Virus record (IMG/VR): IMGVR_UViG_2657244940_000020
Length of the DNA: 17,953 bases
Origin: a virus
Taxonomy: Duplodnaviria > Heunggongvirae > Uroviricota > Caudoviricetes
Direction: 5' to 3' (one strand)
In this document: piece after piece, positions 1-16,572 of the stretch
How the letters are laid out: each line of letters opens with the position of its first letter
Position numbering within the stretch: position 1 is the stretch's first letter
The notes under the pieces: generated by a model
The model's input: the letters and a program-made list of their open reading frames with translations, nothing else
Database searches by the model: none
What the model was told of the DNA's origin: nothing
Translations under genes and position numbers: made by a program

Positions 1-669
1 ATGTCTGAACAATTAGTCACACCTGAAAACGTCACCACGAAAGATGGAAAAATCAACCTGCTGGATCTCAACCGTCAGCAGATGCGGGAGTTTTTTAAAG
101 ATTTAGGTGAAAAACCCTTCCGCGCCGATCAGGTGATGAAGTGGATGTATCACTATTGCTGCGACAACTTTGATGAGATGACCGACATCAATAAAGTGTT
201 GCGCGGCAAACTGAAAGAGGTGGCGGAAATCCGTGCACCGGAAGTGGTTGAAGAACAGCGTTCATCTGACGGCACCATTAAATGGGCGATCGCCGTTGGC
301 GATCAGCGCGTTGAAACGGTATATATCCCGGAAGACGACCGTGCCACGCTCTGCGTCTCTTCGCAGGTGGGGTGTGCGCTGGAGTGTAAATTCTGTTCCA
401 CCGCCCAGCAGGGCTTTAACCGCAACCTGCGGGTATCGGAAATTATCGGCCAGGTGTGGCGTGCGGCGAAAATTGTCGGCGCAGCAAAAGTCACCGGTCA
501 GCGCCCAATCACTAACGTAGTGATGATGGGTATGGGCGAGCCGCTGCTCAACCTGAACAACGTCGTTCCGGCGATGGAAATCATGCTTGATGATTTCGGT
601 TTTGGCCTGTCAAAACGTCGCGTCACGCTTTCCACTTCCGGTGTGGTTCCGGCGCTGGATAAACTGGGT
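1..669 (+). pseudogene. rlmN: 5' fragment of rlmN (radical-SAM 23S rRNA/tRNA m2A methyltransferase), codons 1-223 only; C-terminal ~160 codons missing
   Basis: ORF 1..846 translation begins [23 protein letters not shown]... and contains the radical-SAM CxxxCxxC motif (CALECKFC); matches my memory of E. coli RlmN up to ...VVPALDKLG (nt 669), after which the sequence no longer resembles RlmN. Reading frame continues without stop to 846. Confidence 0.85.
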
Positions 670-846
670 CCAGTTTTTCCAGCCGTTTGGTCAGGGCATA
701 TTCTGCGCAACGATGTCTGTGATATCAGCCTGAACCTGCAACTGACGGAACGTGTGCTGGTCAGCACTGACGGCAGTGTGTCGAGTGTTGAAGCTGTAGC
801 GGAACCCGATGAACCTGAAGAAATGTGGACGGTGAAACGTGGCTGA
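670..846 (+). pseudogene. C-terminal remnant of a P2 R-like tail completion gene, fused in frame to the rlmN fragment; stop overlaps start of S
   Basis: Frame-1 translation [58 protein letters not shown] lies immediately upstream of and overlaps the S-like gene (GTG 839; stop TGA 844-846), the position gene R occupies in P2-like phages. Assignment from gene order and vague family resemblance only. Confidence 0.4.
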
Positions 847-1285
847 ACTGCAGAAGGTGGACGACTGGCTGAGTGCTTTGCTGGCGAATCTGGAGCCAGC
901 CGCCAGAAGCCGCATGATGCGCCAGCTGGCGCAGGAACTGCGCCGGACACAGCAGCAGAATATCAGGATGCAGCGCAACCCTGACGGCAGCAGCTATGAG
1001 CCGCGACGGGTAACAGCACGAAGTAAAAAAGGGCGCATCAAACGTCAGATGTTTGCAAAGCTGCGCACCACAAAATACCTGAAAACCGCCGCCAGCGCGG
1101 ATTCTGCCAGCGTACAGTTTGAAGGTAAGGTGCAGAGCATTGCCCGCGTTCACCATTATGGCCTGCGTGATCGCGTCAGCCGCAAAGGACCGGAGGTCCG
1201 TTACGCAGAGCGTCGCCTTCTGGGTGTAAATGATGATGTTGAGGCAATGACCCGCGACATGATTCTGCAATGGCTGGCGGGGTGA
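839..1285 (+). CDS. S: Tail completion / virion morphogenesis protein (P2 gpS family), 148 aa, GTG start
   Basis: ORF 839..1285 ([25 protein letters not shown]...), size close to P2 gpS (~150 aa) and positioned directly upstream of V as in P2. Confidence 0.75.
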
Positions 1286-1289
1286 TCTT

Positions 1290-1307
1290 TGTATCAGCAC
1301 TGATACA
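1290..1307 (+). promoter_or_regulatory. Candidate Ogr/Delta-activated late promoter element (TGT-N12-ACA dyad) upstream of V
   Basis: TGTatcagcactgatACA at 1290-1307, part of a near-perfect palindrome TTGTATCAGCACTGATACAA, in the S-V intergenic space about 55 bp before the V start codon. P2 late promoters carry a TGT-N12-ACA dyad for Ogr. Confidence 0.5.
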
Positions 1308-1353
1308 AGTTGCAGCACTGCCGCCTTTCTTCCCCTGATGGCAACCTTTCCCT

Positions 1354-1932
1354 ATGAACGCACAATTAACCGAAATCATGCGCCTTATCACCAACCTGAT
1401 CCGCACTGGTGTAGTCACCGAAGTGGACCGGGAGAATTGGCTTTGCCGGGTGAAAACGGGCGAGCTTGAAACCAACTGGATCAGCTGGCTGACGCTGCGT
1501 GCCGGGAATGCCCGCACATGGTGGCGACCATCGGAAGGTGAGCAGGTGGTGCTGCTGAGTCTGGGCGGCAATCTGGAAACCGCGTTTGCCCTGCCTGCGG
1601 TCTACTCAAACCAGTTTCCGCCACCTTCAGATTCTGAGGACGGCAACGTGGTTGAGTACCCGGACGGTGGCTGGTTTGAATACGAACCCGCCACCGGGCG
1701 CTGGTATGTCAGGGGCATCAAATCAATGGTCATTGAGGCCGCTGACAACATCACCATGAAAACCAGTGAGTTTGTACTGGAGGCTGACCGCACGCGCATT
1801 AACAGCGAAGTGGTGATCAATGGTGGCGTTACCCAGGGCGGCGGAGCGATGAGTTCTAACGGGATCGTGGTTGATGCGCATCAGCATACTGGCGTCCTGA
1901 AAGGCGGCGACACAACCGGAGGCCCGGTATGA
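1354..1932 (+). CDS. V: Baseplate central spike protein (P2 gpV family), 192 aa
   Basis: ORF 1354..1932; N-terminal region and the C-terminal His-containing tip motif (VVDAHQHTG) are typical of gpV spikes; stop overlaps W start (ATGA at 1929-1932). Confidence 0.88.
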   Translation: MNAQLTEIMRLITNLIRTGVVTEVDRENWLCRVKTGELETNWISWLTLRAGNARTWWRPSEGEQVVLLSLGGNLETAFALPAVYSNQFPPPSDSEDGNVVEYPDGGWFEYEPATGRWYVRGIKSMVIEAADNITMKTSEFVLEADRTRINSEVVINGGVTQGGGAMSSNGIVVDAHQHTGVLKGGDTTGGPV

Positions 1933-2288
1933 CGCTTTATAGCGGGATGAACAATACCAGCGGTAAAGCCATTACTGATATTGACCATCTGCGCCAGTCG
2001 GTGCGGGACATTCTGCTGACGCCGCAGGGTAGCCGCATTGCTCGTCGGGAATATGGTTCCCTGCTGTCGGCACTGATAGATCAGCCACAAAATCCGGCGT
2101 TACGCCTGCAGGTTATGTCGGCTGTGTATGTGGCACTGAGTCGCTGGGAGCCACGGCTGACGCTGGATTCCATCACTATTAACAGCAATTTTGACGGTTC
2201 AATGGTGGTGGCGCTGAACGGGCGGCGTAATAACGGTGTGCCTGTTTCCCTTTCCGTATCAACAGGAGCAGAGAATGGCAGTGATTGA
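1929..2288 (+). CDS. W: Baseplate wedge protein (P2 gpW / GPW-gp25 family), 119 aa
   Basis: ORF 1929..2288, size and position between V and J as in P2; translationally coupled to V. Confidence 0.82.
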   Translation: MTLYSGMNNTSGKAITDIDHLRQSVRDILLTPQGSRIARREYGSLLSALIDQPQNPALRLQVMSAVYVALSRWEPRLTLDSITINSNFDGSMVVALNGRRNNGVPVSLSVSTGAENGSD

Positions 2289-3183
2289 CCTTTCGCAGTT
2301 GCCTGCGCCGCAGATTGTGGATGTGCCGGACTTTGAGACGCTGCTTGCCGAACGCAAGGCAGAATTTGTGGCGCTTCATCCGAAAGATGAGCAGGAAGCA
2401 GTGATCCGCACGCTGGAACTGGAATCTGAACCCGTCACCAAATTGCTGCAGGAGAACGCTTACCGTGAGTTGCTTCTGCGCCAGCGCATTAACGAAGCCG
2501 CGCAGGCTGTGATGGTGGCTTACGCGATGGGCAGCGATCTTGACCAGCTCGCTGCCAACTACAACGTGAAACGCCTGACGGTGACGCCTGCTGATAATGA
2601 CGCTGTGCCGCCCGTTGCAGCTGTGATGGAAAGCGATGAAGCGTTACGCCTGCGTGTGCCTGCAGCCTTTGAAGGGCTTTCAGTTGCGGGGCCAACTGCA
2701 GCTTATGAATTTCATGCCCGAAGCGCCGACGGTCGGGTGGCGGATGCCAGTGCAACCAGCCCGGCACCTGCAGAGGTGGTGCTGACTGTCCTTAGCCGCG
2801 AAGGCGATGGAACTGCAGAAAAAGACCTGCTGGACGTGGTGGAAAAAGCTCTGAACAGTGAGAACGTCCGCCCGGTGGCTGACCGTCTTACGGTTCGCAG
2901 CGCAGAAATCATCCCGTATCGCGTGGAAGCCACCATTTTTCTCTATCCGGGACCGGAAGCAGAGCCGGTAATGGCAGCGGCAAAAGCCAGCCTGCAGAAG
3001 TACATCGCCAGTCAGACACGTCTTGGTCGGGATATTCGCCGTAGCGCCATCTTTGCCGCCCTGCATGTTGAGGGTGTGCAGCGTGTGGAGCTGGCTTCTC
3101 CTCTGGCGGATGTGGTCCTGAACAAAACACAGGCGGCATCATGTACGCAGTGGAGCGTAACCAACGGAGGAACGGATGAATAG
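2275..3183 (+). CDS. J: Baseplate assembly protein J (P2 gpJ family), 302 aa
   Basis: ORF track gives 2236..3183, but ATG at 2275 is preceded by AGGAGCAGAG (RBS) and yields MAVIDLSQLPAP..., 302 aa, matching P2 gpJ length; overlaps end of W. Confidence 0.88.
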   Translation: MAVIDLSQLPAPQIVDVPDFETLLAERKAEFVALHPKDEQEAVIRTLELESEPVTKLLQENAYRELLLRQRINEAAQAVMVAYAMGSDLDQLAANYNVKRLTVTPADNDAVPPVAAVMESDEALRLRVPAAFEGLSVAGPTAAYEFHARSADGRVADASATSPAPAEVVLTVLSREGDGTAEKDLLDVVEKALNSENVRPVADRLTVRSAEIIPYRVEATIFLYPGPEAEPVMAAAKASLQKYIASQTRLGRDIRRSAIFAALHVEGVQRVELASPLADVVLNKTQAASCTQWSVTNGGTDE

Positions 3184-3781
3184 TCTGCTGCCACCGGGTT
3201 CAACACTACTGGAGCGCCGACTGGCGCAAACCTGCAGCGGGATTTCTGATCTGCAGGTGCCGCTGCGTGACTTGTGGAATCCGGCAACCTGTCCAGTCAG
3301 TTTCCTGCCTTATCTCGCCTGGGCGTTCTCTGTGGATCGCTGGGACGAGAGCTGGACAGAAAGCGTCAAGCGCCAGGTGGTGAAGGATGCTTTTTATATT
3401 CATCAGCATAAAGGGACCACCAGTGCCGTGCGGCGGGTGGTGGAGCCGTTCGGCTTTCTGATCCGCATTATTGAGTGGTGGCAGACCGGAGAGGCACCGG
3501 GCACGTTTCGTCTGGATATCGGTGTGCAGGACCAGGGCATCACTGAAGATACCTATCTGGAACTTGAGCGACTGATAAGCGATGCCAAACCATGTAGCCG
3601 TCACATGATCGGCATGTCCATCAACCTGCAGACCAGCGGCCCGCATTGGGTGGGAGCCGCCAGCTATCTTGGCGAAGAAATCACGATCTATCCGTATATC
3701 AACGAAACAATTATTTCCGGCGGCACCGCGCATGAAGGCGGGGCGGTCCATGTTATTGACACAATGAGAGTGAATCCATGA
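3176..3781 (+). CDS. I: Baseplate/tail protein I (P2 gpI family), 201 aa
   Basis: ORF 3176..3781, start overlaps J stop, stop overlaps H start (ATGA); position between J and the tail fibre gene. Confidence 0.82.
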   Translation: MNSLLPPGSTLLERRLAQTCSGISDLQVPLRDLWNPATCPVSFLPYLAWAFSVDRWDESWTESVKRQVVKDAFYIHQHKGTTSAVRRVVEPFGFLIRIIEWWQTGEAPGTFRLDIGVQDQGITEDTYLELERLISDAKPCSRHMIGMSINLQTSGPHWVGAASYLGEEITIYPYINETIISGGTAHEGGAVHVIDTMRVNP

Positions 3782-5319
3782 GCACAAAATTTTATACCCT
3801 GCTAACGGATATTGGCGCGGCGAAACTTGCCAGCGCCGCCGCGCTCGGTGTGCCTTTAAAAATTACCCATATGGCGGTCGGCGATGGTGGCGGAACATTG
3901 CCAACGCCGGACGCAAAGCAGACAGCATTAGTAAATGAGAAACGCCGGGCTGCGCTGAATATGCTCTATATCGACCCGCAGAACAGCAGCCAGATTATTG
4001 CTGAACAGGTGATCCCTGAAAACGAGGGCGGTTGGTGGATACGTGAAGTGGGCCTGTTTGATGAATCAGGGGCATTGATTGCCGTGGGAAACTGCCCGGA
4101 AAGCTATAAGCCGCAACTGGCTGAAGGTAGCGGGCGCACTCAGACCGTGCGCATGGTGCTGATTACCAGCAGCACGGACAATATCACCCTGAAAATCGAC
4201 CCTGCTGTAGTGCTGTCAACCCGCAAGTATGTGGATGACAAGGCACTGGAGCTGAAGGTGTACGCGGATGATCAGATGGCAAAACATCTTGCCGCACCGG
4301 ACCCGCATTCACAGTATGCACCCAAAGAAAGTCCGACGTTTACCGGGACACCCAAAGCGCCAACGCCAGCAGCAGGGAATAACACCACGCAGATTGCGAC
4401 CACCGCGTTTGTTCAGGCGGCTCTGACGGCTCTTATTAATGGTGCGCCAGCCACGCTGGACACGCTGAAAGAAATAGCCGCAGCCATTAACAATGATCCG
4501 AATTTCAGTACCACCATTAACAATGCGCTGGCACAAAAAGCGCCGCTGTCGAGTCCAGCACTCACCGGAACGCCAACAGCACCTACTGCGGCACAGTCGG
4601 TCAACAATACACAGATTGCCACTACAGCTTTTGTGAAATCAGCGATTGCAGCAATGGTGGGTTCTGCACCCGCGGCACTGGATACACTGAACGAACTGGC
4701 GGCGGCACTGGGGAATGATCCGAACTTTGCCACGACAATGCTTAATGCGCTGGCAGGTAAACAACCGCTGGACAATACGCTTACCAATTTGAGTGGAAAG
4801 GATGTAGCTGGTCTTCTCGCATACCTTAGTTTGGGAGAAGGTTCAGCATTACCTGTTGGTGCGCCTGTTCCGTGGCCGTCAGCAACTCCACCAACTGGAT
4901 GGCTAAAATGCAATGGAGCAGCGTTTACCGCTTCTCAGTACCCCAAATTGGCTCAGGCCTATCCTGCACTCAGATTGCCTGATTTAAGAGGCGAATTTAT
5001 TCGTGGCTGGGATGACGGGCGCGGGGCTGATAGCGGGCGAGGTTTGCTTTCTGCTCAGGGTGCTATGTCATTCGATCACCGGCACTGGATTCCAACTTCA
5101 CCAAGTTCTGGCGGAGATGGTCCAATGACGGCTGTTTTTATAGATAACAATGCGTCAATGGCTTATTACCCGAACGGAACTAATGAATATAACCCAAACC
5201 CGTCAACTGGCACGGTATTGCAGACATATACCGCAAAGGCAACACTTGGTTCAAAAATGTTTGGTAGTGAAACGAGGCCGCGAAACGTTGCATTTAACTA
5301 CATTGTGAGGGCTGCATAA
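3778..5319 (+). CDS. H: Tail fibre protein (P2 gpH-like N-terminus; C-terminal ~160 aa lie inside the invertible segment), 513 aa
   Basis: ORF 3778..5319; N-terminus MSTKFYTLLTDIGAAKLA...MAVGDGGG...ESYKPQLAEGSG is the conserved gpH baseplate-attachment region; central tail-fibre repeat motif; C-terminus has a phage tail-collar-like motif (WLKCNGAAFTASQYPKLAQAY). Confidence 0.9.
   Translation: MSTKFYTLLTDIGAAKLASAAALGVPLKITHMAVGDGGGTLPTPDAKQTALVNEKRRAALNMLYIDPQNSSQIIAEQVIPENEGGWWIREVGLFDESGALIAVGNCPESYKPQLAEGSGRTQTVRMVLITSSTDNITLKIDPAVVLSTRKYVDDKALELKVYADDQMAKHLAAPDPHSQYAPKESPTFTGTPKAPTPAAGNNTTQIATTAFVQAALTALINGAPATLDTLKEIAAAINNDPNFSTTINNALAQKAPLSSPALTGTPTAPTAAQSVNNTQIATTAFVKSAIAAMVGSAPAALDTLNELAAALGNDPNFATTMLNALAGKQPLDNTLTNLSGKDVAGLLAYLSLGEGSALPVGAPVPWPSATPPTGWLKCNGAAFTASQYPKLAQAYPALRLPDLRGEFIRGWDDGRGADSGRGLLSAQGAMSFDHRHWIPTSPSSGGDGPMTAVFIDNNASMAYYPNGTNEYNPNPSTGTVLQTYTAKATLGSKMFGSETRPRNVAFNYIVRAA
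4330..4770 (+). repeat. Two tandem ~219-bp (73-codon) repeat units inside H (4330-4548 and 4552-4770)
   Basis: Protein units SPTFTGTPKAPT...NNTTQIATTAFV...APATLDTLKEIAAAINNDPNFSTTINNALAQKAPL and SPALTGTPTAPT...NNTQIATTAFV...APAALDTLNELAAALGNDPNFATTMLNALAGKQPL are separated by one codon; diverged at DNA level. Confidence 0.6.
4814..4839 (+). other. Left 26-bp DNA-invertase crossover site (hix/gix-like), inside the H coding sequence
   Basis: TTCTCGCATACC-TT-AGTTTGGGAGAA: two imperfect 12-bp inverted half-sites around central TT. It matches the reverse complement of the site at 6714-6739 at 20 of 26 positions, including an identical GTTTGGGAGAA arm. Confidence 0.7.
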
Positions 5320-5918
5320 TGGCACAGGCAAAATTAAACAACGAACTTATCGCCACAGAGGCAGGCGATATTACAGTATTTAACTATGATGACGAGACGC
5401 GAGAATACCTTTCTATATCTGTTGAATATCTGGCCGTGGGCGTAGGTATTCCAGCCAACTCATGCATTGACGCCCCCGGCGAGAGCAAAGAGGGTTTTGC
5501 TATTTGCCGGACAGCCGATTTTGCCGCCTGGGAATACGTCGCGGATCACCGTGGTGAAACGGTGTACAGCACTGAAACAGGCGAGCCGGAGATCGTTTCT
5601 TTGCCTGGTGAATACCCGGAAGGCACCACCACGCTGGCACCTGATACGCCTTACGATACGTGGAACGGTCGCGAGTGGGTGACAGATACGGAAGCGCAGA
5701 ACGCGGCGGACGTGGAAGCGGCGGAACAACAGAAAGCTGCGCTCCTGCTTGAGGCCCAGACAACGATCAGTCTCTGGCAGACAGAACTACAGTTAGGCAT
5801 TATCAGCGATGAAGATAAAGCTAGCCTGATCGCCTGGATGAGCTACATCAAAGCACTACAAGCCGTCGATATATCAACGGCTCCTGTTATTATCTGGCCT
5901 GTTCCTCCGGAGAGTTAG
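5319..5918 (+). CDS. G: Tail fibre assembly chaperone (P2 gpG / Tfa family), 199 aa
   Basis: ORF 5319..5918 directly after H (TAATG overlap); C-terminal ...STAPVIIWPVPPES motif of Tfa chaperones. Confidence 0.82.
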   Translation: MAQAKLNNELIATEAGDITVFNYDDETREYLSISVEYLAVGVGIPANSCIDAPGESKEGFAICRTADFAAWEYVADHRGETVYSTETGEPEIVSLPGEYPEGTTTLAPDTPYDTWNGREWVTDTEAQNAADVEAAEQQKAALLLEAQTTISLWQTELQLGIISDEDKASLIAWMSYIKALQAVDISTAPVIIWPVPPES

Positions 5919-6342
5919 GCCACTCGATATCTGGTGCGCTGGAGGTGTTTAAAACTTCCAGAGCATCCAGATAATCAAGCCACAAACCATACTGTTCAAG
6001 CTCATCGCCTTTCAGACGACCAATAGCGGCTTTACCGGGCCATTGCTTACTGTTCATGTATTCGTTGGCCTGGTGAATTAGTAGCTGTCTTTCTGATTCA
6101 GTAATTTCAATAAGTTCTTCATGCGTGGGTGGAGGAATATCTGCCCACGCAGGCAGCCCATCATCTCCGGCAATACGGATTTTTCCTTGTGGCGGTTCAT
6201 CCATAAACTCACTGATAATATTTTGATTTACTTCCTTAGCGTCTGATAAATCCCATCCCTCTGATTTATATTTATCAATCATATCCACAGGGAAAAAAGC
6301 ATTATGCCTTGCGCTATAAACATATTCGTTCATATAAATCAC
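5890..6342 (-). CDS. Alternative tail fibre assembly chaperone (G'), 150 aa
   Basis: Minus-strand ORF 5890..6342, C-terminus ...SSAPDIEWPNSPEEQAR parallels the G C-terminus; lies downstream of H'v on the minus strand; 3' end overlaps the 3' end of G by 29 nt. Confidence 0.78.
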   Translation of the reverse strand: MIYMNEYVYSARHNAFFPVDMIDKYKSEGWDLSDAKEVNQNIISEFMDEPPQGKIRIAGDDGLPAWADIPPPTHEELIEITESERQLLIHQANEYMNSKQWPGKAAIGRLKGDELEQYGLWLDYLDALEVLNTSSAPDIEWPNSPEEQAR

Positions 6343-6353
6343 CCTGAATAAAA

Positions 6354-6727
6354 TTACTCACCAACAGCCCACCAACTGTAATTCATCGATACCGTGTCGC
6401 TGGTTGATGACGTTCTGTAAGCAGAATTAAAGCCGGTTAACGTTGGGCCTTCTGCAGTCATCACGAACCCTCGCCCAGCGCCTAAAGGCGCACCTCCATC
6501 ACCAGAATGAGTAAGCATGGCGCAGTCCGCTTTTTTAGGGAAAGGGATAGGAAATGTAATCCTCATTGTTTGCGTCGATAATTTCGGCATAGCCTCACCT
6601 CGACCATATTGCAGAATTTTACCGTTTGGTAATTTCATCCATCCATCACCACTGGCAAAAGAAGCCATGTCCGGTATCTGATTTTCCCCTGTTCCCACCC
6701 CCCGTTTCGCTGCTTCTCCCAAACCAA
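6354..6727 (-). CDS. Alternative tail-fibre C-terminal cassette (H'v); has no start of its own and is expressed only after inversion fuses it to the H constant region
   Basis: Minus-strand open frame runs from the right crossover site to the stop at 6354 (...GLGEAAKRGVGTGENQIPDMASFASGDGWMKLPNGKILQYGRG...). It is in frame with the H constant part across the crossover dinucleotide. The ATG at 6767 in the ORF track lies outside the invertible segment and is probably not used. Confidence 0.72.
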
Positions 6728-6739
6728 CGTTTATGAAAA
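6714..6739 (+). other. Right 26-bp DNA-invertase crossover site (hix/gix-like)
   Basis: TTCTCCCAAACC-AA-CGTTTATGAAAA; resembles remembered hixL/gix/cix sites (TTnTCnnAAACC ... GGTTTnnGAnAA); inverted relative to the site at 4814-4839 with complementary central dinucleotide. Confidence 0.75.
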
Positions 6740-6794
6740 TGCAGAGATAACGGCTAACTGGCATCATCTCCGGTTTTTATTCAGGGGGATGATC

Positions 6795-7361
6795 ATGCTT
6801 ATTGGCTATGTACGCGTGTCAACAAATGACCAGAACACCGATTTGCAACGCAATGCACTGAACTGTGCGGGATGTGAGCGGATTTTTGAGGATAAAATCA
6901 GTGGCACCAAGTCCGACAGACCGGGGCTGAAAAAGCTGCTCAGGACACTATCGGCAGGAGACACGCTGGTTGTCTGGAAGCTGGACAGACTGGGGCGCAG
7001 TATGCGGCATCTTGTTACGCTGATAGAAGAGCTGCGCCAGCGTGGCGTGAATTTCCGAAGCCTGACTGACAGTATTGATACCAGCACCCCAATGGGCCGT
7101 TTCTTTTTTCATGTCATGGGTGCCCTGGCTGAAATGGAACGCGAACTGATAGTTGAACGTACCAGGGCGGGGCTGGCTGCAGCTCGTGCTAAAGGCAGAG
7201 TAGGTGGACGCCGTCCTAAGTTGACCAGCGAACAGTGGGCACAGATTGGGCGTTTACTCGAGGCCGGAGAATCAAGACAGCGTATTGCACTGATTTTTGA
7301 TGTAGGCGTTTCTACCATTTATCGAAAATTTCCGGCAAATAAGAACAATAAATCTCCCTGA
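6795..7361 (+). CDS. Serine-recombinase DNA invertase (Gin/Pin/Hin/Cin family), 188 aa
   Basis: MLIGYVRVSTNDQNTDLQRNAL...VVWKLDRLGRSMRHL...GRFFFHVMGALAEMERELI...GGRRPKLT closely matches remembered Gin/Pin N-terminal catalytic and C-terminal HTH regions. GGGGG at 6784-6788 sits 6 nt before ATG 6795; an in-frame ATG at 6789 is an alternative start. Confidence 0.9.
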   Translation: MLIGYVRVSTNDQNTDLQRNALNCAGCERIFEDKISGTKSDRPGLKKLLRTLSAGDTLVVWKLDRLGRSMRHLVTLIEELRQRGVNFRSLTDSIDTSTPMGRFFFHVMGALAEMERELIVERTRAGLAAARAKGRVGGRRPKLTSEQWAQIGRLLEAGESRQRIALIFDVGVSTIYRKFPANKNNKSP

Positions 7362-7409
7362 ATCAGCTTTATTTTGATTATCCCTGAAAGCAGACAAATA
7401 CCGTCATTT

Positions 7410-7427
7410 TGTGTGAATAACGGTACA
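7410..7427 (+). promoter_or_regulatory. Candidate Ogr/Delta-activated late promoter element (TGT-N12-ACA) upstream of FI
   Basis: TGTgtgaataacggtACA at 7410-7427 in the invertase-FI intergenic region, ~85 bp upstream of the FI ATG, which has a strong RBS (CAGGAGGT at 7488-7495). Confidence 0.55.
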
Positions 7428-7503
7428 ACTGCGCTTAGCTGTTTGTCAGGCACAATCACTTCAACATAGGGCGAAGCCTAATCCAATCAGGAGGTTCGCC
7501 ACT

Positions 7504-8676
7504 ATGGCTCAGGATTACCACCACGGGGTGCGCGTTGTTGAAGTCAACGAAGGCACCCGATCCATTACCACGGTGAGCACCGCCATCGTGGGTATGGTCT
7601 GCACGGGCGATGATGCCGATGCAAAAATGTTTCCTCTTAATAAACCCGTGCTGATCACTGATGTGCTGACTGCCAGCGGTAAAGCGGGTGAGTCAGGCAC
7701 GCTGGCTCGTTCGCTGGATGCCATCGCTGACCAGGCAAAACCCGTGACCGTTGTTGTGCGTGTGCCGCAGGGTGAAACGGAAGAAGAAACCACGACCAAT
7801 ATCATCGGAGCAGTGACCGCTGAAGGTAAAAAAACAGGCATGAAAGCCCTGTTATCTGCCCAGTCACAGCTCGGCGTTAAACCGCGCATTCTCGGCGTGC
7901 CAGGTCACGACACGAAGGCGGTAGCTACTGAGTTGCTGAGCGTGGCGCAAAGCCTGCGTGGATTTGCTTACCTGTCAGCGTATGGTTGCAAGACAGTGCA
8001 GGAAGCAATCACTTACCGTGAAAACTTCAGTCAGCGTGAAGGAATGCTGATCTGGCCCGACTTTACTGGCTGGGACACGGTGCTGAATGCCGAAGCAACG
8101 GCTTATGCCACCGCCCGTGCGCTTGGTCTGCGCGCCAAAATTGACGAGCAGACCGGATGGCACAAAAGCCTGTCCAACGTGGGCGTTAACGGTGTCACCG
8201 GAATTTCTGCTGATGTGTTCTGGGATCTGCAGGACCCGGCAACCGATGCGGGACTGCTGAACCAGAACGACGTCACCACCCTTATCCGCAAAGACGGTTT
8301 TCGCTTCTGGGGTTCCCGCTGCCTGAGTGATGACCCGCTCTTTGCCTTCGAAAACTACACCCGCACGGCGCAGGTGCTGACGGACACGATGGCAGAAGCG
8401 CACATGTGGGCGGTGGATAAACCGCTGAATCCGTCGCTGGCCCGCGACATTATCGAGGGTATCCGCGCCAAAATGCGCAGCCTGGTCAGTCAGGGCTATC
8501 TCATTGGTGGTGATTGCTGGCTGGATGAGTCGGTGAACGACAAAGACACGCTGAAAGCCGGAAAACTCACCATCGACTACGACTACACGCCAGTGCCGCC
8601 ACTTGAAAACCTGATGCTGCGTCAGCGCATCACCGATCAGTACCTGGTGAATTTCTCCAGCCAGGTCAGCGCGTAA
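7504..8676 (+). CDS. FI: Contractile tail sheath protein (P2 gpFI family), 390 aa
   Basis: ORF 7504..8676 with strong SD; size (P2 FI ~396 aa) and position before the tube gene. Confidence 0.9.
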
Positions 8677-8685
8677 GGGGACAAC

Positions 8686-9201
8686 ATGGCTTTACCACGC
8701 AAATTAAAACACCTGAACCTGTTTAATGACGGGAACAACTGGCAGGGGATCGTTGAGTCGCTGACGCTGCCGAAATTTACCCGCAAATATGAGAAGTATC
8801 GCGGCGGCGGAATGCCGGGTGCAGTGGATGTGGATCTGGGGCTGGATGACGGCGCACTGGATACGGAATTTTCCATTGGTGGTACTGAACTGCTGCTGTT
8901 TAAGCAGATGGGCAAAGCCACGGTAGATGGTATCCAGTTGCGCTTTACCGGCTCTATCCAGCGTGACGATACCGGGGAAGTGCAGGCCGTGGAGCTTGTG
9001 GTGCGTGGACGTCACAAAGAAGTGGATTCCGGCGAGTGGAAGACGGGCGAAAGCAACACCACCAAAGTGACCAGTACCAACAGCTACGCGAAGCTGACTA
9101 TAAATGGTGAGGTGCTCTATGAAGTGGACCTTATCAACATGGTGGAAATTGTGGACGGTGTGGACCTGATGGAAGCGCACCGCAACGCCCTCGGCCTCTG
9201 A
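8686..9201 (+). CDS. FII: Tail tube protein (P2 gpFII family), 171 aa
   Basis: ORF 8686..9201 directly after the sheath gene; size matches P2 FII (~172 aa). Confidence 0.88.
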   Translation: MALPRKLKHLNLFNDGNNWQGIVESLTLPKFTRKYEKYRGGGMPGAVDVDLGLDDGALDTEFSIGGTELLLFKQMGKATVDGIQLRFTGSIQRDDTGEVQAVELVVRGRHKEVDSGEWKTGESNTTKVTSTNSYAKLTINGEVLYEVDLINMVEIVDGVDLMEAHRNALGL

Positions 9202-9255
9202 TGTATCTGAACGGCGCGGGATACCGCGCCAGAACCCAATTTACAGGACAGCAAA

Positions 9256-9558
9256 ATGAGCGATAAGCAGACTGAAAAGACTATTCAACTGGATACCCCC
9301 ATCAAGCGCGGTAAAACAGAAATCACCGAAATTGTGCTGCGTAAACCGCAGTCCGGTGCGCTGCGCGGTACACGCCTGCAGGCCATTATGGATATGGATG
9401 TGAACGCGATGATGACCGTGATCCCCCGCATCTCCAGTCCGGCACTGACTGCACAGGAAATTGCAGAGATGGACCCGGCAGATCTCACTGCCATGTCGGT
9501 TGAGGTTGTCACTTTTTTGTTGAAGAAGTCGGTGCTTGCCGGTTTACCGACAGCCTGA
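9256..9558 (+). CDS. E: Tail assembly chaperone E (P2 gpE), 100 aa
   Basis: ORF 9256..9558 upstream of the tape measure gene; contains the T6G slippery site near its 3' end. Confidence 0.8.
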   Translation: MSDKQTEKTIQLDTPIKRGKTEITEIVLRKPQSGALRGTRLQAIMDMDVNAMMTVIPRISSPALTAQEIAEMDPADLTAMSVEVVTFLLKKSVLAGLPTA

Positions 9559-9692
9559 CGGTTGACGATCTGGTGGCTGATATCGCCACCATCTTTCACT
9601 GGCCGCCATCCGTTACTGACGTTATGCCGCTGACCGAAGTGCTGGAATGGCGGTATAAAGTGATTCAGAGAAGCGGGGCCAACGATGAGTGA
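9256..9692 (+). CDS. Tail assembly chaperone E+E' made by programmed -1 frameshift at TTTTTTG (9513-9519); predicted ~145 aa
   Basis: Slippery heptamer T TTT TTG at 9513-9519 in the E frame. The -1 frame is open from there (FFVEEVGACRFTDSLTVDDLVADIATIFHWPPSVTDVMPLTEVLEWRYKVIQRSGANDE*) to TGA 9690-9692, overlapping the T start codon. Same arrangement as P2 E/E+E'. Confidence 0.65.
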
Positions 9693-12600
9693 TAATAACC
9701 TGCGCCTGCAGGTCATTCTTAATGCGGTTGACAAACTCACCCGCCCATTCCGTGCTGCACAGGCCAGTTCGAAAGAGCTGGCTGGCGCAATTCAGAATAC
9801 CCGAAACAGCCTCAAAGAACTAAATAAGCAGGCTGGCAGAATTGATGAATTTCGCAAGACGCGCTCGCAACTAGCCATAACAGCCAACAACCTGAACGCA
9901 GCCCGCGAAGAGGCGGCAAAACTCGCCACACAATTTGCTGCCACTAACAGGCCAACCGCCGCGCAGGCAAAGTTATTCAGTCAGGCCAAAACACGAGTAC
10001 AGGAACTTCAGCAGACCTATAACGGCTTGTTGGGGGCGGTCCAGAGACAACGTCAGGCACTTAAAGAATCAGGGATTGATACCAGACAACTCAGTAGTGC
10101 CCAGCGAGAACTTAAGAAAAATGCCGAAGAAACTCGTCAGGCACTGGAGGGCCAGCAAAAAGCACTTAAACGTCTGGGTGAACAACAGGCACGGATGAAC
10201 GCTGCCAGAGAACAATACTCAAGACGGCTTGAAGTGCGCGATCGCATCGCAGGAGCCGGAGCCACCACCACGGCTGCAGGGCTGGCAATGGGCGCGCCAG
10301 TGATGGCGGCGGTAAAAAGCTATACCAGCATGGAAGATGCCATGAAAGGTGTGGCAAAGCAGGTCAATGGTCTGCGTGACGATAATGGCAACCGCACTGT
10401 GCGTTTTTACGAAATGCAGGATGCCATCAAAGCTGCCAGTGAACAGCTGCCAATGGAAAACGGTGCTGTGGACTTCGCCGCACTGGTTGAAGGTGGTGCG
10501 CGCATGAATGTGGCAAACCCTGACGACAGCTGGGAGGACCAGAAACGTGACCTGCTGGCCTTCGCCAGTACGGCAGCAAAGGCGGCAACAGCCTTTGAGC
10601 TGCCAGCGGATGAACTGTCAGAAAGTCTGGGGAAAATCGCCCAGCTCTACAAAATACCAACCCGCAATATTGAACAGCTCGGTGATGCGCTGAACTATCT
10701 GGATGATAACGCTATGTCGAAAGGGGCAGACATCATTGATGTCATGCAACGCCTGGGCGGTGTGGCTGATCGTCTGGATTATCGTAAAGCGGCGGCGCTG
10801 GGTTCCACCTTCCTGACACTGGGGGCTGCGCCGGAGGTCGCTGCCAGTGCTGCCAACGCGATGGTGCGTGAATTGTCCATTGCCACCATGCAAAGCAAGA
10901 GTTTCTTTGAAGGGATGAATCTGCTGAAACTCAATCCTGAAGTGATTGAAAAGCAGATGACGAAGGATGCGATGGGAACTATCCAGCGTGTGCTGGAGAA
11001 GGTGAACGCACTGCCGCAGGACAAGCGTCTGTCTGCCATGACCATGTTGTTTGGTAAAGAGTTTGGCGATGACGCGGCGAAACTGGCAAACAACCTGCCG
11101 GAACTACAGCGCCAGCTAAAACTGACAGCGGGCAATGATGCGCTCGGTTCCATGCAGAAAGAATCCGACATCAACAAGGACTCACTTTCTGCTCAGTGGT
11201 TGCTGGTTAAAACCGGAGCGCAGAATACCTTCAGCAGCCTGGGCGAAACGCTGCGCCAGCCGCTGATAGATATTCTGTACACGGTGAAAAGCATCACGGG
11301 GGCGTTGCGTCGCTGGGTGGAAGCTAACCCTGAACTGACGGGTACACTGATGAAAGTAGCCGCGGTTGTGGCTGCGGTTACTGTCGGCCTCGGCACCTTA
11401 GCGGTGGCGCTGGCTGCAGTGCTGGGGCCGCTGGCAGTGATCCGTCTGGGATTCTCTGTGCTGGGTATCAAAACGTTACCTTCCGTTACGGCAGCAGTAA
11501 CTCGAACCAGCAGCGCGTTGTCCTGGCTGGCTGGCGCACCACTGATACTGCTGCGACGCGGGCTTGCTTCATCGGGCAACGCTGCGGGTTTACTTACTGC
11601 ACCGTTGTCATCTTTGCGCCGCACGGCATCACTGACGGGAAATGTCTTGAAAACTGTAGCAGGTGCGCCAGTTGCACTTTTGCGGTCTGGATTATCCGGT
11701 TTACGTGCTGTTGCTGTGATGTTTATGAATCCTCTGGCGGTACTGCGCGGTGGACTGGCAGCCGCAGGCGCGGTGCTGCGAGTGCTTGCATCTGGTCCGC
11801 TGGCGATGCTGCGCGTTGCCCTGTATGCCATATCTGGTCTGTTAGGTGCTCTGCTTAGTCCGATAGGTCTTGTGGTTACTGCACTGGCGGGTGTGGCGCT
11901 GGTTGTCTGGAAATACTGGCAACCCATCACCGCATTTCTCGGTGGCGTGGTGGAAGGATTCAAAGCGGCGGCAGGTCCCATCAGTGCAGCGTTTGAACCA
12001 CTTAAGCCCGTGTTCCAGTGGATTGGCGACAAAGTGCAGGCGCTGTGGGGCTGGTTTACTGATCTGCTGACGCCTGTTAAGTCGACCTCTGCCGAACTGC
12101 AGAGCGCAGCGGCAATGGGGCGACGATTCGGGGAGGCACTGGCGGAAGGGCTGAATATGGTCATGCATCCGCTGGACTCCCTGAAATCCGGCGTTTCCTG
12201 GTTGCTGGATAAACTCGGCATTGTCAGTAAAGAGGCTGCAAAGGCGAAACTGCCGGAAAGTGTGACGCGTCAGCAACCTGCGACGGTGAATGCAGACGGT
12301 AAAGTGATGATGCCATCGGGTGGTTTTCCGTCATGGGGATATAGCTTTGCGGGGATGTATGACAGCGGCGGCTATATCCCGCGCGGGCAGTTTGGCATCG
12401 TCGGTGAAAACGGGCCGGAAATTGTCAACGGCCCGGCAAACGTGACCAGCCGGAGAAATACCGCTGCACTGGCTGCGGTTGTTGCCGGAATGATGGGCGT
12501 TGCTGCCGCGCCTACAGAGCTTCCACCGTTGCACCCTTTGGCACTTCCCGCGAAAGGCGGCGAAGCGATGGTGAGTCGTGCAGCCACTGTGCCGCCCATT

Positions 12601-12762
12601 CAACGGATTGAGGCACCGACGCAGATCATCATTCAGACGCAGCCAGGACAAAGTGCGCAGGATATTGCGCGGGAGGTGGCCCGCCAGCTTGATGAACGTG
12701 AACGCAGGCTGAAGGCAAAAGCCAGGAGTAACTACAGCGATCAGGGGGGATACGACGCATGA
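9685..12762 (+). CDS. T: Tail tape measure protein (P2 gpT family), 1025 aa
   Basis: ORF 9685..12762; long alpha-helical N-terminal region, hydrophobic segment with periodic L-R-x-G-L repeats, position after E/E'; start overlaps E' stop. Confidence 0.9.
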   Translation: MSDNNLRLQVILNAVDKLTRPFRAAQASSKELAGAIQNTRNSLKELNKQAGRIDEFRKTRSQLAITANNLNAAREEAAKLATQFAATNRPTAAQAKLFSQAKTRVQELQQTYNGLLGAVQRQRQALKESGIDTRQLSSAQRELKKNAEETRQALEGQQKALKRLGEQQARMNAAREQYSRRLEVRDRIAGAGATTTAAGLAMGAPVMAAVKSYTSMEDAMKGVAKQVNGLRDDNGNRTVRFYEMQDAIKAASEQLPMENGAVDFAALVEGGARMNVANPDDSWEDQKRDLLAFASTAAKAATAFELPADELSESLGKIAQLYKIPTRNIEQLGDALNYLDDNAMSKGADIIDVMQRLGGVADRLDYRKAAALGSTFLTLGAAPEVAASAANAMVRELSIATMQSKSFFEGMNLLKLNPEVIEKQMTKDAMGTIQRVLEKVNALPQDKRLSAMTMLFGKEFGDDAAKLANNLPELQRQLKLTAGNDALGSMQKESDINKDSLSAQWLLVKTGAQNTFSSLGETLRQPLIDILYTVKSITGALRRWVEANPELTGTLMKVAAVVAAVTVGLGTLAVALAAVLGPLAVIRLGFSVLGIKTLPSVTAAVTRTSSALSWLAGAPLILLRRGLASSGNAAGLLTAPLSSLRRTASLTGNVLKTVAGAPVALLRSGLSGLRAVAVMFMNPLAVLRGGLAAAGAVLRVLASGPLAMLRVALYAISGLLGALLSPIGLVVTALAGVALVVWKYWQPITAFLGGVVEGFKAAAGPISAAFEPLKPVFQWIGDKVQALWGWFTDLLTPVKSTSAELQSAAAMGRRFGEALAEGLNMVMHPLDSLKSGVSWLLDKLGIVSKEAAKAKLPESVTRQQPATVNADGKVMMPSGGFPSWGYSFAGMYDSGGYIPRGQFGIVGENGPEIVNGPANVTSRRNTAALAAVVAGMMGVAAAPTELPPLHPLALPAKGGEAMVSRAATVPPIQRIEAPTQIIIQTQPGQSAQDIAREVARQLDERERRLKAKARSNYSDQGGYDA

Positions 12763-13244
12763 TGATGGTGCTGGGATTGTACGTGTTTATGCTGCGCACC
12801 GTGCCGTATCAGGAGCTGCAGTATCAACGCAGCTGGCGACATGCGGCAAACAGCCGGGTAAACCGACGTCCGTCCACGCAGTTTCTGGGACCGGACAACG
12901 ACATGCTGACGCTTTCCGGTGTTCTTATGCCGGAGATAACAGGTGGCAGGATGTCGTTGCTGGCACTGGAGCAGATGGCAGAACAGGGGAAAGCATGGCC
13001 CCTGATTGAAGGCAGCGGCACGATTTATGGCATGTATGTGATTGAGGGACTGAATCAGACTAAAACGGAGTTTTTCCGCGATGGTATGCCGCGCCGGATT
13101 GAGTTTACCCTGTCGCTCAAACGGGTGGATGAATCCCTGTCCGATATGTTCGGTGATCTCAGTGCGCAGCTGAATAATCTGCAGGATACGGCAACGTCTG
13201 CCTTAAGCGATATCAGTAAAACGGTGGGAGGGCTGCTGTCGTGA
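12759..13244 (+). CDS. U: Tail protein U (P2 gpU family), 161 aa
   Basis: ORF 12759..13244, ATG overlaps T stop; size matches P2 gpU (~159 aa). Confidence 0.85.
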   Translation: MMMVLGLYVFMLRTVPYQELQYQRSWRHAANSRVNRRPSTQFLGPDNDMLTLSGVLMPEITGGRMSLLALEQMAEQGKAWPLIEGSGTIYGMYVIEGLNQTKTEFFRDGMPRRIEFTLSLKRVDESLSDMFGDLSAQLNNLQDTATSALSDISKTVGGLLS

Positions 13245-14365
13245 ATTTCAGCTCTGAACTGCTTAACAAAGGCAACAAAACTCCCGCATTCAGCATCAGT
13301 ATTGAGGGGAAGGATATCACCACTGTGCTGGATAACCGCCTGATGAGTCTGACGTTGACGGACAATCGGGGCTTTGAAGCAGACCAGCTTGATCTGGAGC
13401 TGGACGACGCCGACGGAAAAATCGTGCTGCCGCGCCGTGGGGCGGTCATCACGCTGGCGCTGGGCTGGAAGGGGCAGCCGCTTTTCCCGAAAGGGGCATT
13501 CACGGTGGACGAGATTGAACACACCGGCGCACCGGATCGCCTGACTATCCGGGCGCGAAGTGCTGATTTTAGGGAAACGCTGAATACCCGCCGTGAAAAA
13601 TCGTGGCACAAGACCACTGTCGGGGAAGTGGTGAAGGAAATAGCCGCGCGTCATAAGCTGAAGATGGCACTGGGTAAAGACCTGTCGGATAAGCCCGTGG
13701 AGCATATAGACCAGACTAATGAGAGTGACGGCAGTTTTCTGATGCGGCTGGCGCGCCAGTACGGTGCCATCGCGTCGGTGAAAAATGGCAATCTGTTATT
13801 CATCCGGCAGGGACAGGGCAAAAGCGCCAGCGGTAAACCACTGCCGGTGATCTCAATCACACGTAAGGACGGCGACAGTCACCGCTTTACCCTGGCAGAT
13901 CGCGGAGCCTACACGGGCGTAATTGCCAGCTGGTTGCATACCCGCGAACCCGCGAAGAAAGAAAGCACCACGGTGAAGCGTAAGCGCAGGACTAAGAAGC
14001 AGAAGAAAGAGCCGGAAGCGAAGCAGGGCGATTACCTGGTGGGTACAGATGAAAACGTGCTGGTACTTAATCGCACCTATGCCAACCGGAGCAACGCCGA
14101 ACGGGCGGCGAAAATGCAGTGGGAACGCCTGCAACGCGGCGTTGCGTCATTCTCGCTACAACTGGCAGAAGGTCGGGCAGATCTCTACACGGAAATGCCA
14201 GTGAAAGTCAGTGGCTTTAAACAGCCGATAGATGATGCGGAATGGACCATTACGACTCTGACGCATACTGTCAGCCCGGATAACGGTTTTACGACCAGTT
14301 TGGAGCTTGAAGTGAAGATTGATGATTTCGAAATGGAAGGATTCTTCGCAATGGAGAACTTTTAA
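13241..14365 (+). CDS. D: Tail protein D (P2 gpD / late control D family), 374 aa, GTG start overlapping U stop
   Basis: ORF 13241..14365 (MNFSSELLNKGNKTPAFSISIEGKDITTVLDNR...), size close to P2 gpD (387 aa), last gene before ogr as in P2. Confidence 0.87.
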   Translation: MNFSSELLNKGNKTPAFSISIEGKDITTVLDNRLMSLTLTDNRGFEADQLDLELDDADGKIVLPRRGAVITLALGWKGQPLFPKGAFTVDEIEHTGAPDRLTIRARSADFRETLNTRREKSWHKTTVGEVVKEIAARHKLKMALGKDLSDKPVEHIDQTNESDGSFLMRLARQYGAIASVKNGNLLFIRQGQGKSASGKPLPVISITRKDGDSHRFTLADRGAYTGVIASWLHTREPAKKESTTVKRKRRTKKQKKEPEAKQGDYLVGTDENVLVLNRTYANRSNAERAAKMQWERLQRGVASFSLQLAEGRADLYTEMPVKVSGFKQPIDDAEWTITTLTHTVSPDNGFTTSLELEVKIDDFEMEGFFAMENF

Positions 14366-14431
14366 GTTTTCAAAATGGAATAATGCGGTATCATTATTGT
14401 GAATTTAGCAAAAATGGGGAGAACTCGAAAA

Positions 14432-14650
14432 ATGATGATTTGCCCACTGTGTGGAAGTGCCGCCCATACTCGCAGCAGTTTTCAGGTATCTTCATTGACC
14501 AAAGAGCGTTACAACCAGTGCCAGAACATTAACTGCAGCCATACTTTTGTTACCCATGAAACTTTTGTTCGTTCGATTGCAACGCCAAAAGAGTCAAATC
14601 CGGTTCAGCCGCATCCAATGAAATCAGAACAGGTGGCGCTCTCTCTTTGA
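14432..14650 (+). CDS. ogr: Ogr/Delta-family zinc-finger late transcription activator, 72 aa
   Basis: MMICPLCGSAAHTRSS...ERYNQCQNINCSHTF has the CxxC-N22-CxxxxC zinc-finger spacing and the size of P2 Ogr (72 aa). ORF track starts at 14399, but the ATG at 14432 gives the expected length and N-terminus. Confidence 0.85.
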   Translation: MMICPLCGSAAHTRSSFQVSSLTKERYNQCQNINCSHTFVTHETFVRSIATPKESNPVQPHPMKSEQVALSL

Positions 14651-14728
14651 CGCTGCCGCCATTTTGTCGCCATCGTTAAAAAACAGTGTTTCTAACATCA
14701 TGATTTTAAACAGCTTAAATTTCAGGCA

Positions 14729-14809
14729 ACAAAAAACCCATCAACCTTGAACCGAAATGGCGGGGTTGATGGGCTCCACAAAATGGGGACATCAAAGAAA
14801 AGCAGTGGC
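14729..14809 (-). ncRNA. rybB: RybB small regulatory RNA (sigma-E dependent, Hfq-binding), ~81 nt including intrinsic terminator
   Basis: Reverse complement of 14729-14809 reads GCCACTGCTTTTCTTTGATGTCCCCATTTTGTGGAGCCCATCAACCCCGCCATTTCGGTTCAAGGTTGATGGGTTTTTTGTT, matching my memory of E. coli RybB. It ends in a 10-bp stem (14737-14746 / 14764-14773) followed by a U-run on the minus strand. Confidence 0.85.
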
Positions 14810-14845
14810 ACTAATTAAGACTGATGCCCTGCGGAAAAGTTCTGC
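14810..14845 (-). promoter_or_regulatory. rybB sigma-E promoter (-35 GAACTT, -10 GTCTTA)
   Basis: Minus-strand sequence upstream of the RybB 5' end: GAACTT (plus 14837-14842) and GTCTTA (plus 14816-14821) with ~15-16 nt spacing, fitting the sigma-E consensus GGAACTT-N16-TCnnA. Confidence 0.6.
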
Positions 14846-14886
14846 GGTTGTGCAAAAAAAATTTCATTTTCAGGGCAACTTCAGTT

Positions 14887-16572
14887 TTATCCTAATCCTG
14901 GCCATACCATGACGATGATTGTCCCTGCCAGCGTCAGCAGGACGTTGGCGATTGCATAGGTGCCCGCATAGCCCAGCGCCGGGATGTTACTGCGAGCTGT
15001 ATCACTGATGATCTCCATTGCCGGCGCGCAGGTGCGTGCGCCCATCATTGCGCCGAACAACAGTGCGCGGTTCATTCGCAATACATAAGCACCGAACAAG
15101 AAACAGATAACCACTGGCACAAGACTGACAATCAATCCGGCAATCAACATCTGACCGCCAATCGCGCCCAGGCCGTTATTAATACCGCTACCGGCGCTCA
15201 GACCAACGCCTGCCATAAACACCATTAAGCCGAACTCTTTCACCATGCTTAATGCACCCTGCGGAATGTAACCGAAGGTCGGGTGGTTAGCGCGCATAAA
15301 GCCCAGCATAATTCCGGCGAATAACAACCCGGCAGCGTTCCCCATGCCGAAACTGAATGTGCTGAACTGGAAGGTGATCATCCCGATCATCAGCCCAATA
15401 ACAAAGAAGGCGCAGAATGCCAGCAAGTCAGTGACCTGGCTGTGAATCGAGATAAAGCCGATGCGATCGGCGATGGTTTTTACGCGACGGGCATCGCCGC
15501 TGACTTGTAAAACGTCACCTTTGTTAAGCACGACGTTGTCATCTATCGGCATCTCAATCTGGCTACGAATGACGCGGTTAAGGAAGCAACCGTGATCGGT
15601 CAACTTCAGTTGTGCGAGACGTTTGCCCACGGCGTTATGGTTTTTAACGACCACTTCTTCAGTGACGATACGCATGTCGAGAAGGTCACGATCGAAAACT
15701 TCTTTGCCGTTACGGAAGCTGGGATCGAGTCGTGCGTGGGCGTCGGGATAGCCTACCAACGCTATTTCATCGCCCATTTGTAGCACAGCATCACCGTCTG
15801 GATTCGCCAGAATCCCGTTACGTCGAATACGTTCAATGTAGCAGCCAGTTTGTCGATAAATACCCAGTTCACGCAGATTTTTGCCGTCGGTCCAGGCCAC
15901 CAGCTCCGGGCCGACGCGGTAGGCGCGGATCACCGGTAAATAAACCTTACGGTTGGCATCAGTGTCCAGGCCACGTTCGCGGGCGATTTGCTGGGCGCTG
16001 GTCTGTAAGTCCTGATGCTGCAATTTCGGCAAGTAACGCGCACCAACAATCAAACTCACCAGACCGATTAAATAGGTTAAGGCATACCCGAGGCTCAGAT
16101 TATCCAGTGCCAGTGAGAGTTGCCTGCTTTCCATGCCGGAATGACGCAGTGTATCGCCAGCACCGACCAGAACCGGTGTCGACGTCATAGAGCCAGCTAA
16201 CATACCGGCCGTCAGGCCAATATCCCAGCCAAACAGCTTACCTAACCCTAAGGCGATCACCAGCGCACTGCCAACCATCACCAGTGCTAACATTAGGTAA
16301 TTTTTCCCATCGCGAAAAAAAATGGAAAAAAAGTTCGGTCCGGCTTCGACCCCGACGCAGAAAATAAACAGCATAAAGCCAAGATTAAGCGCGTCGGTGT
16401 TAATGCTGAAATGTTGTTGGCCTAATAACAGCGATACGACTAAAACGCCAATGGAATTACCCAGTTGGATCGAACCAAGTCGTAATTTCCCGAGACATAG
16501 CCCAAGCGCGAGGACCACAAATAATAACAGAATGTAATTCCCATTTAACAATTCGGCGACGTTTATATTCAC
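14887..16572 (-). CDS. ybjL: Putative transporter YbjL (AAE family, two RCK_C/TrkA-C domains), 561 aa
   Basis: ORF 14887..16572 ([25 protein letters not shown]...VWPGLG) matches remembered E. coli YbjL in full length. Confidence 0.92.

Follow-up and report, generated by a model that had tools for sequence, protein, structure and literature searches.

The first 846 nucleotides of the stretch of DNA analysed here (17,953 nucleotides, the window) form an open reading frame in which three sequences of different origin adjoin: the 5' part of the chromosomal gene rlmN, a short antisense piece of ubiJ, and the 3' end of gene R, a tail gene of P2-like phages. In our judgement this reading frame is probably the scar of an in vivo chromosomal rearrangement that arose by illegitimate, template-switch-type recombination. 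As a single-strain case such a scar is ordinary. What merits notice is the ubiJ insert with its fold-back and, above all, the recurrence of the same breakpoint in gene R in other prophages.

Anatomy of the chimeric reading frame

The window follows gene borders within contig CDRA01000153.1 (63,455 bp) of the draft E. coli assembly GCA_000947375.1, running from the start ATG of rlmN to the stop codon of ybjC. The original prediction described an rlmN frame that is exact to codon 223 and then runs into 58 unrelated codons. The reading frame and the 58-codon extension are both present, but the extension is not all phage DNA because 669-699 is antisense ubiJ sequence. A three-way alignment accounted for every base of 1-846 by rlmN, ubiJ or R. 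The coordinates are collected in Table 1.

Table 1. Features of the window and joins at the same site of gene R in other P2-like prophages
Feature	Sequence	Position	Strand	Basis or detail
Chimeric ORF, RlmN(1-223)…R(96-143)	window	1..846	+	281 aa
rlmN 5' 58%, codons 1-222 plus 2 nt	window	1..668	+	668/668 identity to B2 E. coli
Fold-back (inverted homeology) spanning junction A	window	654..683	.	13/14 pairing; DNA fold
ubiJ antisense insert, 31 nt, templated	window	669..699	+	31/31 match to ubiJ 3' end
2-nt microhomology AT, ubiJ insert/gene R (junction B)	window	698..699	.	three-way alignment
Gene R 3' remnant, codons 96-143, native frame	window	698..846	+	identity to CFT073; Pfam P2_Phage_GpR 96-133
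Gene S (tail completion/virion morphogenesis), intact	window	839..1285	+	Pfam Phage_tail_S, 8e-42
TGT-N12-ACA perfect dyad TTGTATCAGCACTGATACAA between S and V	window	1290..1307	+	read from sequence
Remaining P2-like tail module: V W J I H G, invertible fibre segment and Cin/Hin-type invertase, FI FII E T U D, ogr	window	1354..14650	+	ORFs, Pfam
attR core of rybB-targeting P2-like prophage	window	14715..14741	.	K-12 vs CFT073 overlap and pattern search
Deletion, portal 16446 to R 23902	L018 / L157 (two Logan runs, read-archive assemblies, and one IMG/VR contig)	2665 / 7795		
Deletion from portal 16351	L020 (= L029; Enterobacter asburiae TN152)	2195		
Deletion from terminase 17778	L022	2039		8-nt microhomology
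Join to other P2-like DNA at R site	L142			
IS66-family element at 8-bp target GGATATTC	L021	141		

The rlmN piece matched the chromosomal rlmN of phylogroup-B2 strains, for example ATCC 11775, at all 668 positions, and sseB, sseA, yfhM, pbpC and ndk, the native neighbours of rlmN, lie upstream of it on the contig. Because of this identity and these neighbours, the piece is the true chromosomal gene, which rules out the diverged phage-borne paralogue that had been left standing as an alternative.

The insert matched ubiJ at every one of its 31 positions (E = 2e-6 against 28 Gb), and one end of the match lies 10 nt upstream of the ubiJ stop codon. On the sense strand of ubiJ the same stretch encodes 11 residues of UbiJ near its C-terminal end, and this source sequence is kept in essentially all 5,426 complete E. 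coli genomes. rlmN and the insert meet at 668/669 with an overlap of 0 nt. rlmN and the ubiJ sense strand have a 14-nt near-identical word in common, and the two copies stand head-to-head at the join. As a result, rlmN 654-667 (GCTGGATAAACTGG) pairs with insert 670-683 (CCAGTTTTTCCAGC) at 13 of 14 positions, both arms being native rlmN and ubiJ sequence. At least 13 pairs with the rlmN end were reached by fewer than 4e-4 of random 31-mers. The complementarity is thus far beyond chance, which indicates that the ubiJ insert was picked by sequence and is not a random fragment. Folding of 640-760 as single-stranded DNA gave -21.5 kcal/mol (z = -2.9) with none of 200 shuffles equally stable, and the stem is part of the centroid structure.

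From base 698 onward the DNA was 99.9% identical to the 3' end of the P2-like gene R of CFT073, annotated as 'phage tail protein' (CFT073 928900 onward), so that the R remnant anticipated for 670-846 is indeed present from this base. The frame of R is kept, and the fusion ends in R's own C-terminus (...MWTVKRG). The share of R in the fusion is the last 48 codons, that is, the last third of this P2-family tail-completion gene. Gene S begins with GTG at 839 and so overlaps the end of the fusion, whose stop codon is at 844-846, 58 codons past the rlmN part; this overlap had likewise been foreseen.

RlmN makes m2A2503 in 23S rRNA and m2A37 in tRNA, and C355 is its catalytic cysteine alongside C118. 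Of these two the fusion retains C118, along with the cluster motif C125-X3-C129-X2-C132, but it has none of residues 224-384 and hence no C355. Pfam found RlmN_N and positions 2-95 of the 166 of the Radical_SAM profile. A functional RlmN/Cfr radical-SAM methyl synthase combines the CX3CX2C motif with both C118 and C355 and a complete barrel, a combination not found here. Without C355 and half of the radical-SAM barrel the fusion cannot work as RlmN, as had been expected of a fragment with the cysteine motif and without the C-terminal half. The event would knock out RlmN in this strain. The phage portion covers only positions 96-133 of the GpR profile (PF06891) and scores 19.7 bits against a cut-off of 25, short of a full-length match, and the fusion is no working GpR either.

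A shared breakpoint in gene R

The break in R falls between GAT and ATT, at codons 95/96 (window 698-700; 23899-23902 of the CFT073 locus, L003). At least five independent events in other P2-like prophages, four deletions and one IS66 insertion, have this point, to within 3 nt, as their endpoint (Table 1). The phages that share the breakpoint differ in this region from one another and from CFT073, with identities of only 76-95%. Their joins at the R site have variable, unrelated partners and 2-8 nt of microhomology, which is often imperfect. In the insertion (L021 1-150; ENA ERZ27252147 k141_3671) an IS66-family end with the IR GTAAGCGTCGTC... adjoins R at GGATATTC.

Further results speak for a true hotspot. 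Among 120 loci that were sampled by DNA pattern and had enough flank, 117 had an intact R, one had a frameshift and two had truncations, both at the GAT/ATT site. In a set of 25 aberrant R proteins, five break at codons 94-96 (Poisson P about 2e-4). Because R is conserved on either side of the site, the breakpoint is no alignment-boundary artefact of the kind that a conserved/variable mosaic might produce; the alignments of the partners also abut exactly.

The 36-bp block after the breakpoint was examined as a CRISPR protospacer and rejected, since its 1,015 E. coli matches were full-length R genes and none was spacer-like. A scan of JGI metagenomes for non-native sequence upstream of this block gave no hits. 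One protein, P0107, that might have been a left-retaining use of the site breaks at L003 23862 and was set aside.

Breakpoints in R also form a second cluster, a looser one, some 36 nt further downstream and just past DISLN (R codons 106-113; window about 730-750). Its members are P0002, P0003, P0008, P0009, P0012, P0019, P0175, P0178, L155, L156 and H182, and they include fusions with gene V, with a Dam methylase and with the replication endonuclease gene, as well as a 36-nt tandem duplication (12 aa twice). This cluster is not nucleotide-precise, as its DNA breaks are at 23935, 23937 and 23946. One member, L155 (Logan SRR18032325, in 8 samples), is a heavily scrambled P2-like remnant with D and U inverted, lysC joined to R(1-107), and lysA, lysozyme, holin and X inverted. 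Its R join has a 2-nt overlap, and it may be a real snap-back rearrangement or an effect of k=31 assembly.

In the CFT073-type allele a 9-bp hairpin, TATTCACCT-TTG-AGGTGGATA, has its 3' foot at the breakpoint (L003 23903), where it would fit polymerase stalling during leftward copying. The stem is weak, the regional fold is not significant (z = 0.27), and the hairpin is degenerate in other R alleles. A literature search found no known hotspot in R and no mention of the assembly accession. We raise the following idea as a possibility that is on balance doubtful. The GAT/ATT point in P2-like gene R could be a conserved fragile site, where forks stall or strands break, perhaps at the hairpin's foot. 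It would repeatedly seed illegitimate recombination and transposon insertion across Enterobacteriaceae and drive the formation of head-less, lysis-less, tail-only remnants. In the present strain such a site would have captured a broken chromosomal end and so led to a megabase inversion. If the breakpoint is mechanistic, it would help to explain the decay of P2-like prophages and would offer a defined sequence for studies of bacterial fragile sites.

Origin of the join

In K-12, rlmN (2,643,129-2,644,283) and ybjL (888,134-889,819) are both on the minus strand and 1.755 Mb apart, in line with the distance of about 1.7 Mb between rlmN and the rybB-ybjL locus given beforehand. The window has the two genes on opposite strands, rlmN on plus and ybjL on minus, so that their relative orientation is flipped versus K-12. 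The join is therefore of the inversion type. The original prediction had listed a deletion, an inversion, another rearrangement or a chimera. A rearrangement rather than an integration agrees with the data, but a simple deletion cannot give this orientation. The reciprocal junction, between the 5' part of R and the 3' part of rlmN, was not found among R N-terminal homologues, a set from which genes at contig ends may be missing. Nor was R(1-94) found fused to RlmN or to short out-of-frame tails among the R homologues. We infer, from the orientation of the one junction at hand, that the join is one end of an inversion of about 1.75 Mb across the replication terminus.

The join shows no long homology, IS end or recombinase site; it does show microhomology and a templated ubiJ insert, the features expected of template switching. 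The most economical sequence of events to give this structure would start with a broken or stalled 3' end in rlmN after nt 668, which would engage ubiJ at the 14-nt near-identical sequence. Synthesis would then turn around onto the displaced strand and copy 31 nt of the opposite strand of ubiJ, leaving the fold-back. A second switch, through the 2-nt match, would lead to the recurrently broken point in gene R of the P2-like prophage at rybB/ybjL. The joins could be the product of MMBIR/FoSTeS-like template switching or of alternative end joining with templated filler. The outcome would be the inactivation of rlmN and R, a head/lysis/regulatory half that is unattached to the tail genes here, and gene S placed behind the rlmN promoter. 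PMC11297215, which cites Chayot et al. 2010, describes E. coli as being without Ku/LigD end joining but with RecBCD/LigA-dependent A-EJ that is able to give translocations.

That the junction is a genuine in vivo event is, we think, fairly likely. The breakpoint coincides with independent natural events in R, which favours a real event over an assembly chimera. Such a chimera would mean that a chimeric read, or scaffolding or gap closing, joined the end of an rlmN contig, a stray ubiJ fragment and the end of a prophage contig, and that the genome itself has an intact rlmN and an ordinary prophage. We regard this as rather improbable, though it deserves weight. The junction has one carrier, a draft (short-read style) assembly, and none of 5,426 complete E. 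coli genomes contains it. Among about 15 billion proteins the fusion protein forms a singleton cluster, known from one contig, and a word-indexed protein search with the junction peptide found no other carriers, a weak result because the search missed the fusion protein itself (P0001), which is present. The length of the insert, 31 nt, is a common k-mer size. Inverted joins with short complementarity resemble in vitro template-switch chimeras, and polymerase artefacts made in vitro typically have fold-backs of this kind too. The missing reciprocal junction among R-like proteins would suit a chimera as well. Against this, a De Bruijn assembler needs real reads for the k-mers of both junctions, and, were the true paths present as well, we would expect it to branch at a low-coverage chimera rather than to run through it for 42 kb on the left and 21 kb on the right, as this contig does with native synteny on both sides. 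It is also very unlikely that a random misjoin would match, to the nucleotide, natural R breakpoints found elsewhere.

A history in two steps, in which a deletion ending at the R site first removed the left half of the prophage, or an IS66-type element sat there, and a later unrelated rearrangement brought rlmN alongside, seems quite unlikely. Deletions from portal or terminase that end at exactly this R site do exist in other lineages, and the phage with the IS66-family element at GGATATTC (L021) is 95% identical to that of the window. However, no portal, terminase or IS sequence lies between ubiJ and R, and the second event would need the same nucleotide again. No IS end is present at the junction, all of 1-846 being assigned to rlmN, ubiJ or R.

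Site-specific recombination, by an aberrant integrase at a secondary att site or by a Cin/Hin invertase at a quasi-site, is highly improbable. In its favour, the prophage has a gene for a Cin/Hin-type invertase as well as cix-like sites, a serine recombinase could account for the 2-nt overlap at junction B, and the R site is loosely like the att core by eye (about 9/15 positions). Against it, no sites of either type lie at the join, and the partners joined to the R site elsewhere are unrelated sequences with variable microhomology, in phages of differing sequence. For the invertase we looked for a 26-bp crossover site made of two TTYTCNNAAACC-type half-sites flanking a 2-bp core. Compared by eye with genuine sites, no cix-like half-sites were seen around 698 (686-712), in the ubiJ insert or at rlmN 668, and the R site and its partners were judged unlike cix. 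The att core (about 25-27 bp) was defined by comparing K-12 with CFT073. It occurs as a single copy in the window (Table 1), and no other match was found there at up to 6 mismatches. The longest word common to 560-900 and 14600-14900 was 9 nt, which upholds the earlier view that the junction is no att site and has no direct repeat of the rybB end. An att junction would have a copy of the core at the join and the integrase-proximal end of the prophage beside the host flank; neither was found, and the junction is within R, a late gene that in CFT073 lies 19.5 kb away from the end with the integrase.

End protection by Chi/RecBCD was rejected too. The Chi octamer was absent, in both orientations, from 698-14650 of the window and from the CFT073 prophage (L003 4000-37400, about 33 kb), and it was also absent from related remnants. 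The sole Chi in the window is at 15897 in ybjL, on the bottom strand.

The prophage remnant and comparison with known systems

Downstream of the fusion the tail module, 95-97% identical to CFT073 and other prophages at ybjL, and ogr (kept at 14399-14650) appear from their reading frames to be intact. In the best 10 of 1,987 index blocks carrying the S protein, this same protein comes after an intact R. The invertible tail-fibre segment has cix-like inverted sites (TTCTCCCAAACCAACGTTTATGAAAA) at 4814-4840 and 6713-6739, a Cin/Hin-type serine invertase at 6789-7361, and an opposite-strand alternative fibre C-terminus with its chaperone at 5890-6767 (minus strand). Beyond ogr come attR, rybB, ybjL, ybjM, grxA and ybjC. 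RybB is at 14728-14806 on the minus strand (Rfam, 105 bits), with rybB regenerated intact. The attR core overlaps the 3' end of rybB.

Because R is truncated, and the head, lysis, replication and integrase genes are unattached at the junction, the prophage is probably a grounded remnant that is non-inducible and has tail genes only. Gene S is probably transcribed from the rlmN promoter, together with the fusion reading frame. Ahead of V there is one weak terminator-like site only (1262-1283), fewer than expected by chance, so that transcripts from the rlmN promoter may also extend into the V-G genes. The dyad between S and V is predicted to be, and we take it to be, an Ogr/Delta-type late-promoter element of P2-like phages, upstream of V.

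The event probably marks a large inversion and would fix a non-inducible tail-gene remnant behind a housekeeping promoter. If genuine, the junction is a clean case, from nature, of illegitimate joining over several templates in E. coli, with a 31-nt insert chosen by 14-nt homeology.

Compared with prophages at the CFT073-type rybB/ybjL att junction, the right end is normal, with attR in the 3' end of rybB; unlike theirs, the left end lacks 19.5 kb of phage DNA as well as the integrase and the att core. A-EJ, as summarised in PMC11297215, is alike in that it joins unrelated chromosomal ends without Ku/LigD and at little or no microhomology, and it can result in translocations or inversions. It differs in that the filler here starts with the complement of the adjacent rlmN end, for which A-EJ alone does not account.

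Junctions ascribed to MMBIR/FoSTeS, including those of stress-induced amplification in E. coli, share with it the lack of long homology, a short microhomology (2 nt here), an inverted templated insert copied from a distant locus, the use of a diverged repeat (14 nt here) and serial switches. They differ in that the present case is a single natural junction in a draft genome, known from sequence alone, whose rlmN/ubiJ join has a 0-nt overlap and a fold-back rather than classic microhomology. Grounded or defective prophages, including tail-only P2-like remnants (PMC6379469), resemble the one described here in that tail genes, ogr and attR are kept and the integrase, replication, head and lysis genes are absent at the junction. 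What sets the present one apart is that its truncation consists not in a deletion within the prophage but in joining to a housekeeping gene far away, at a breakpoint that independent remnants share.
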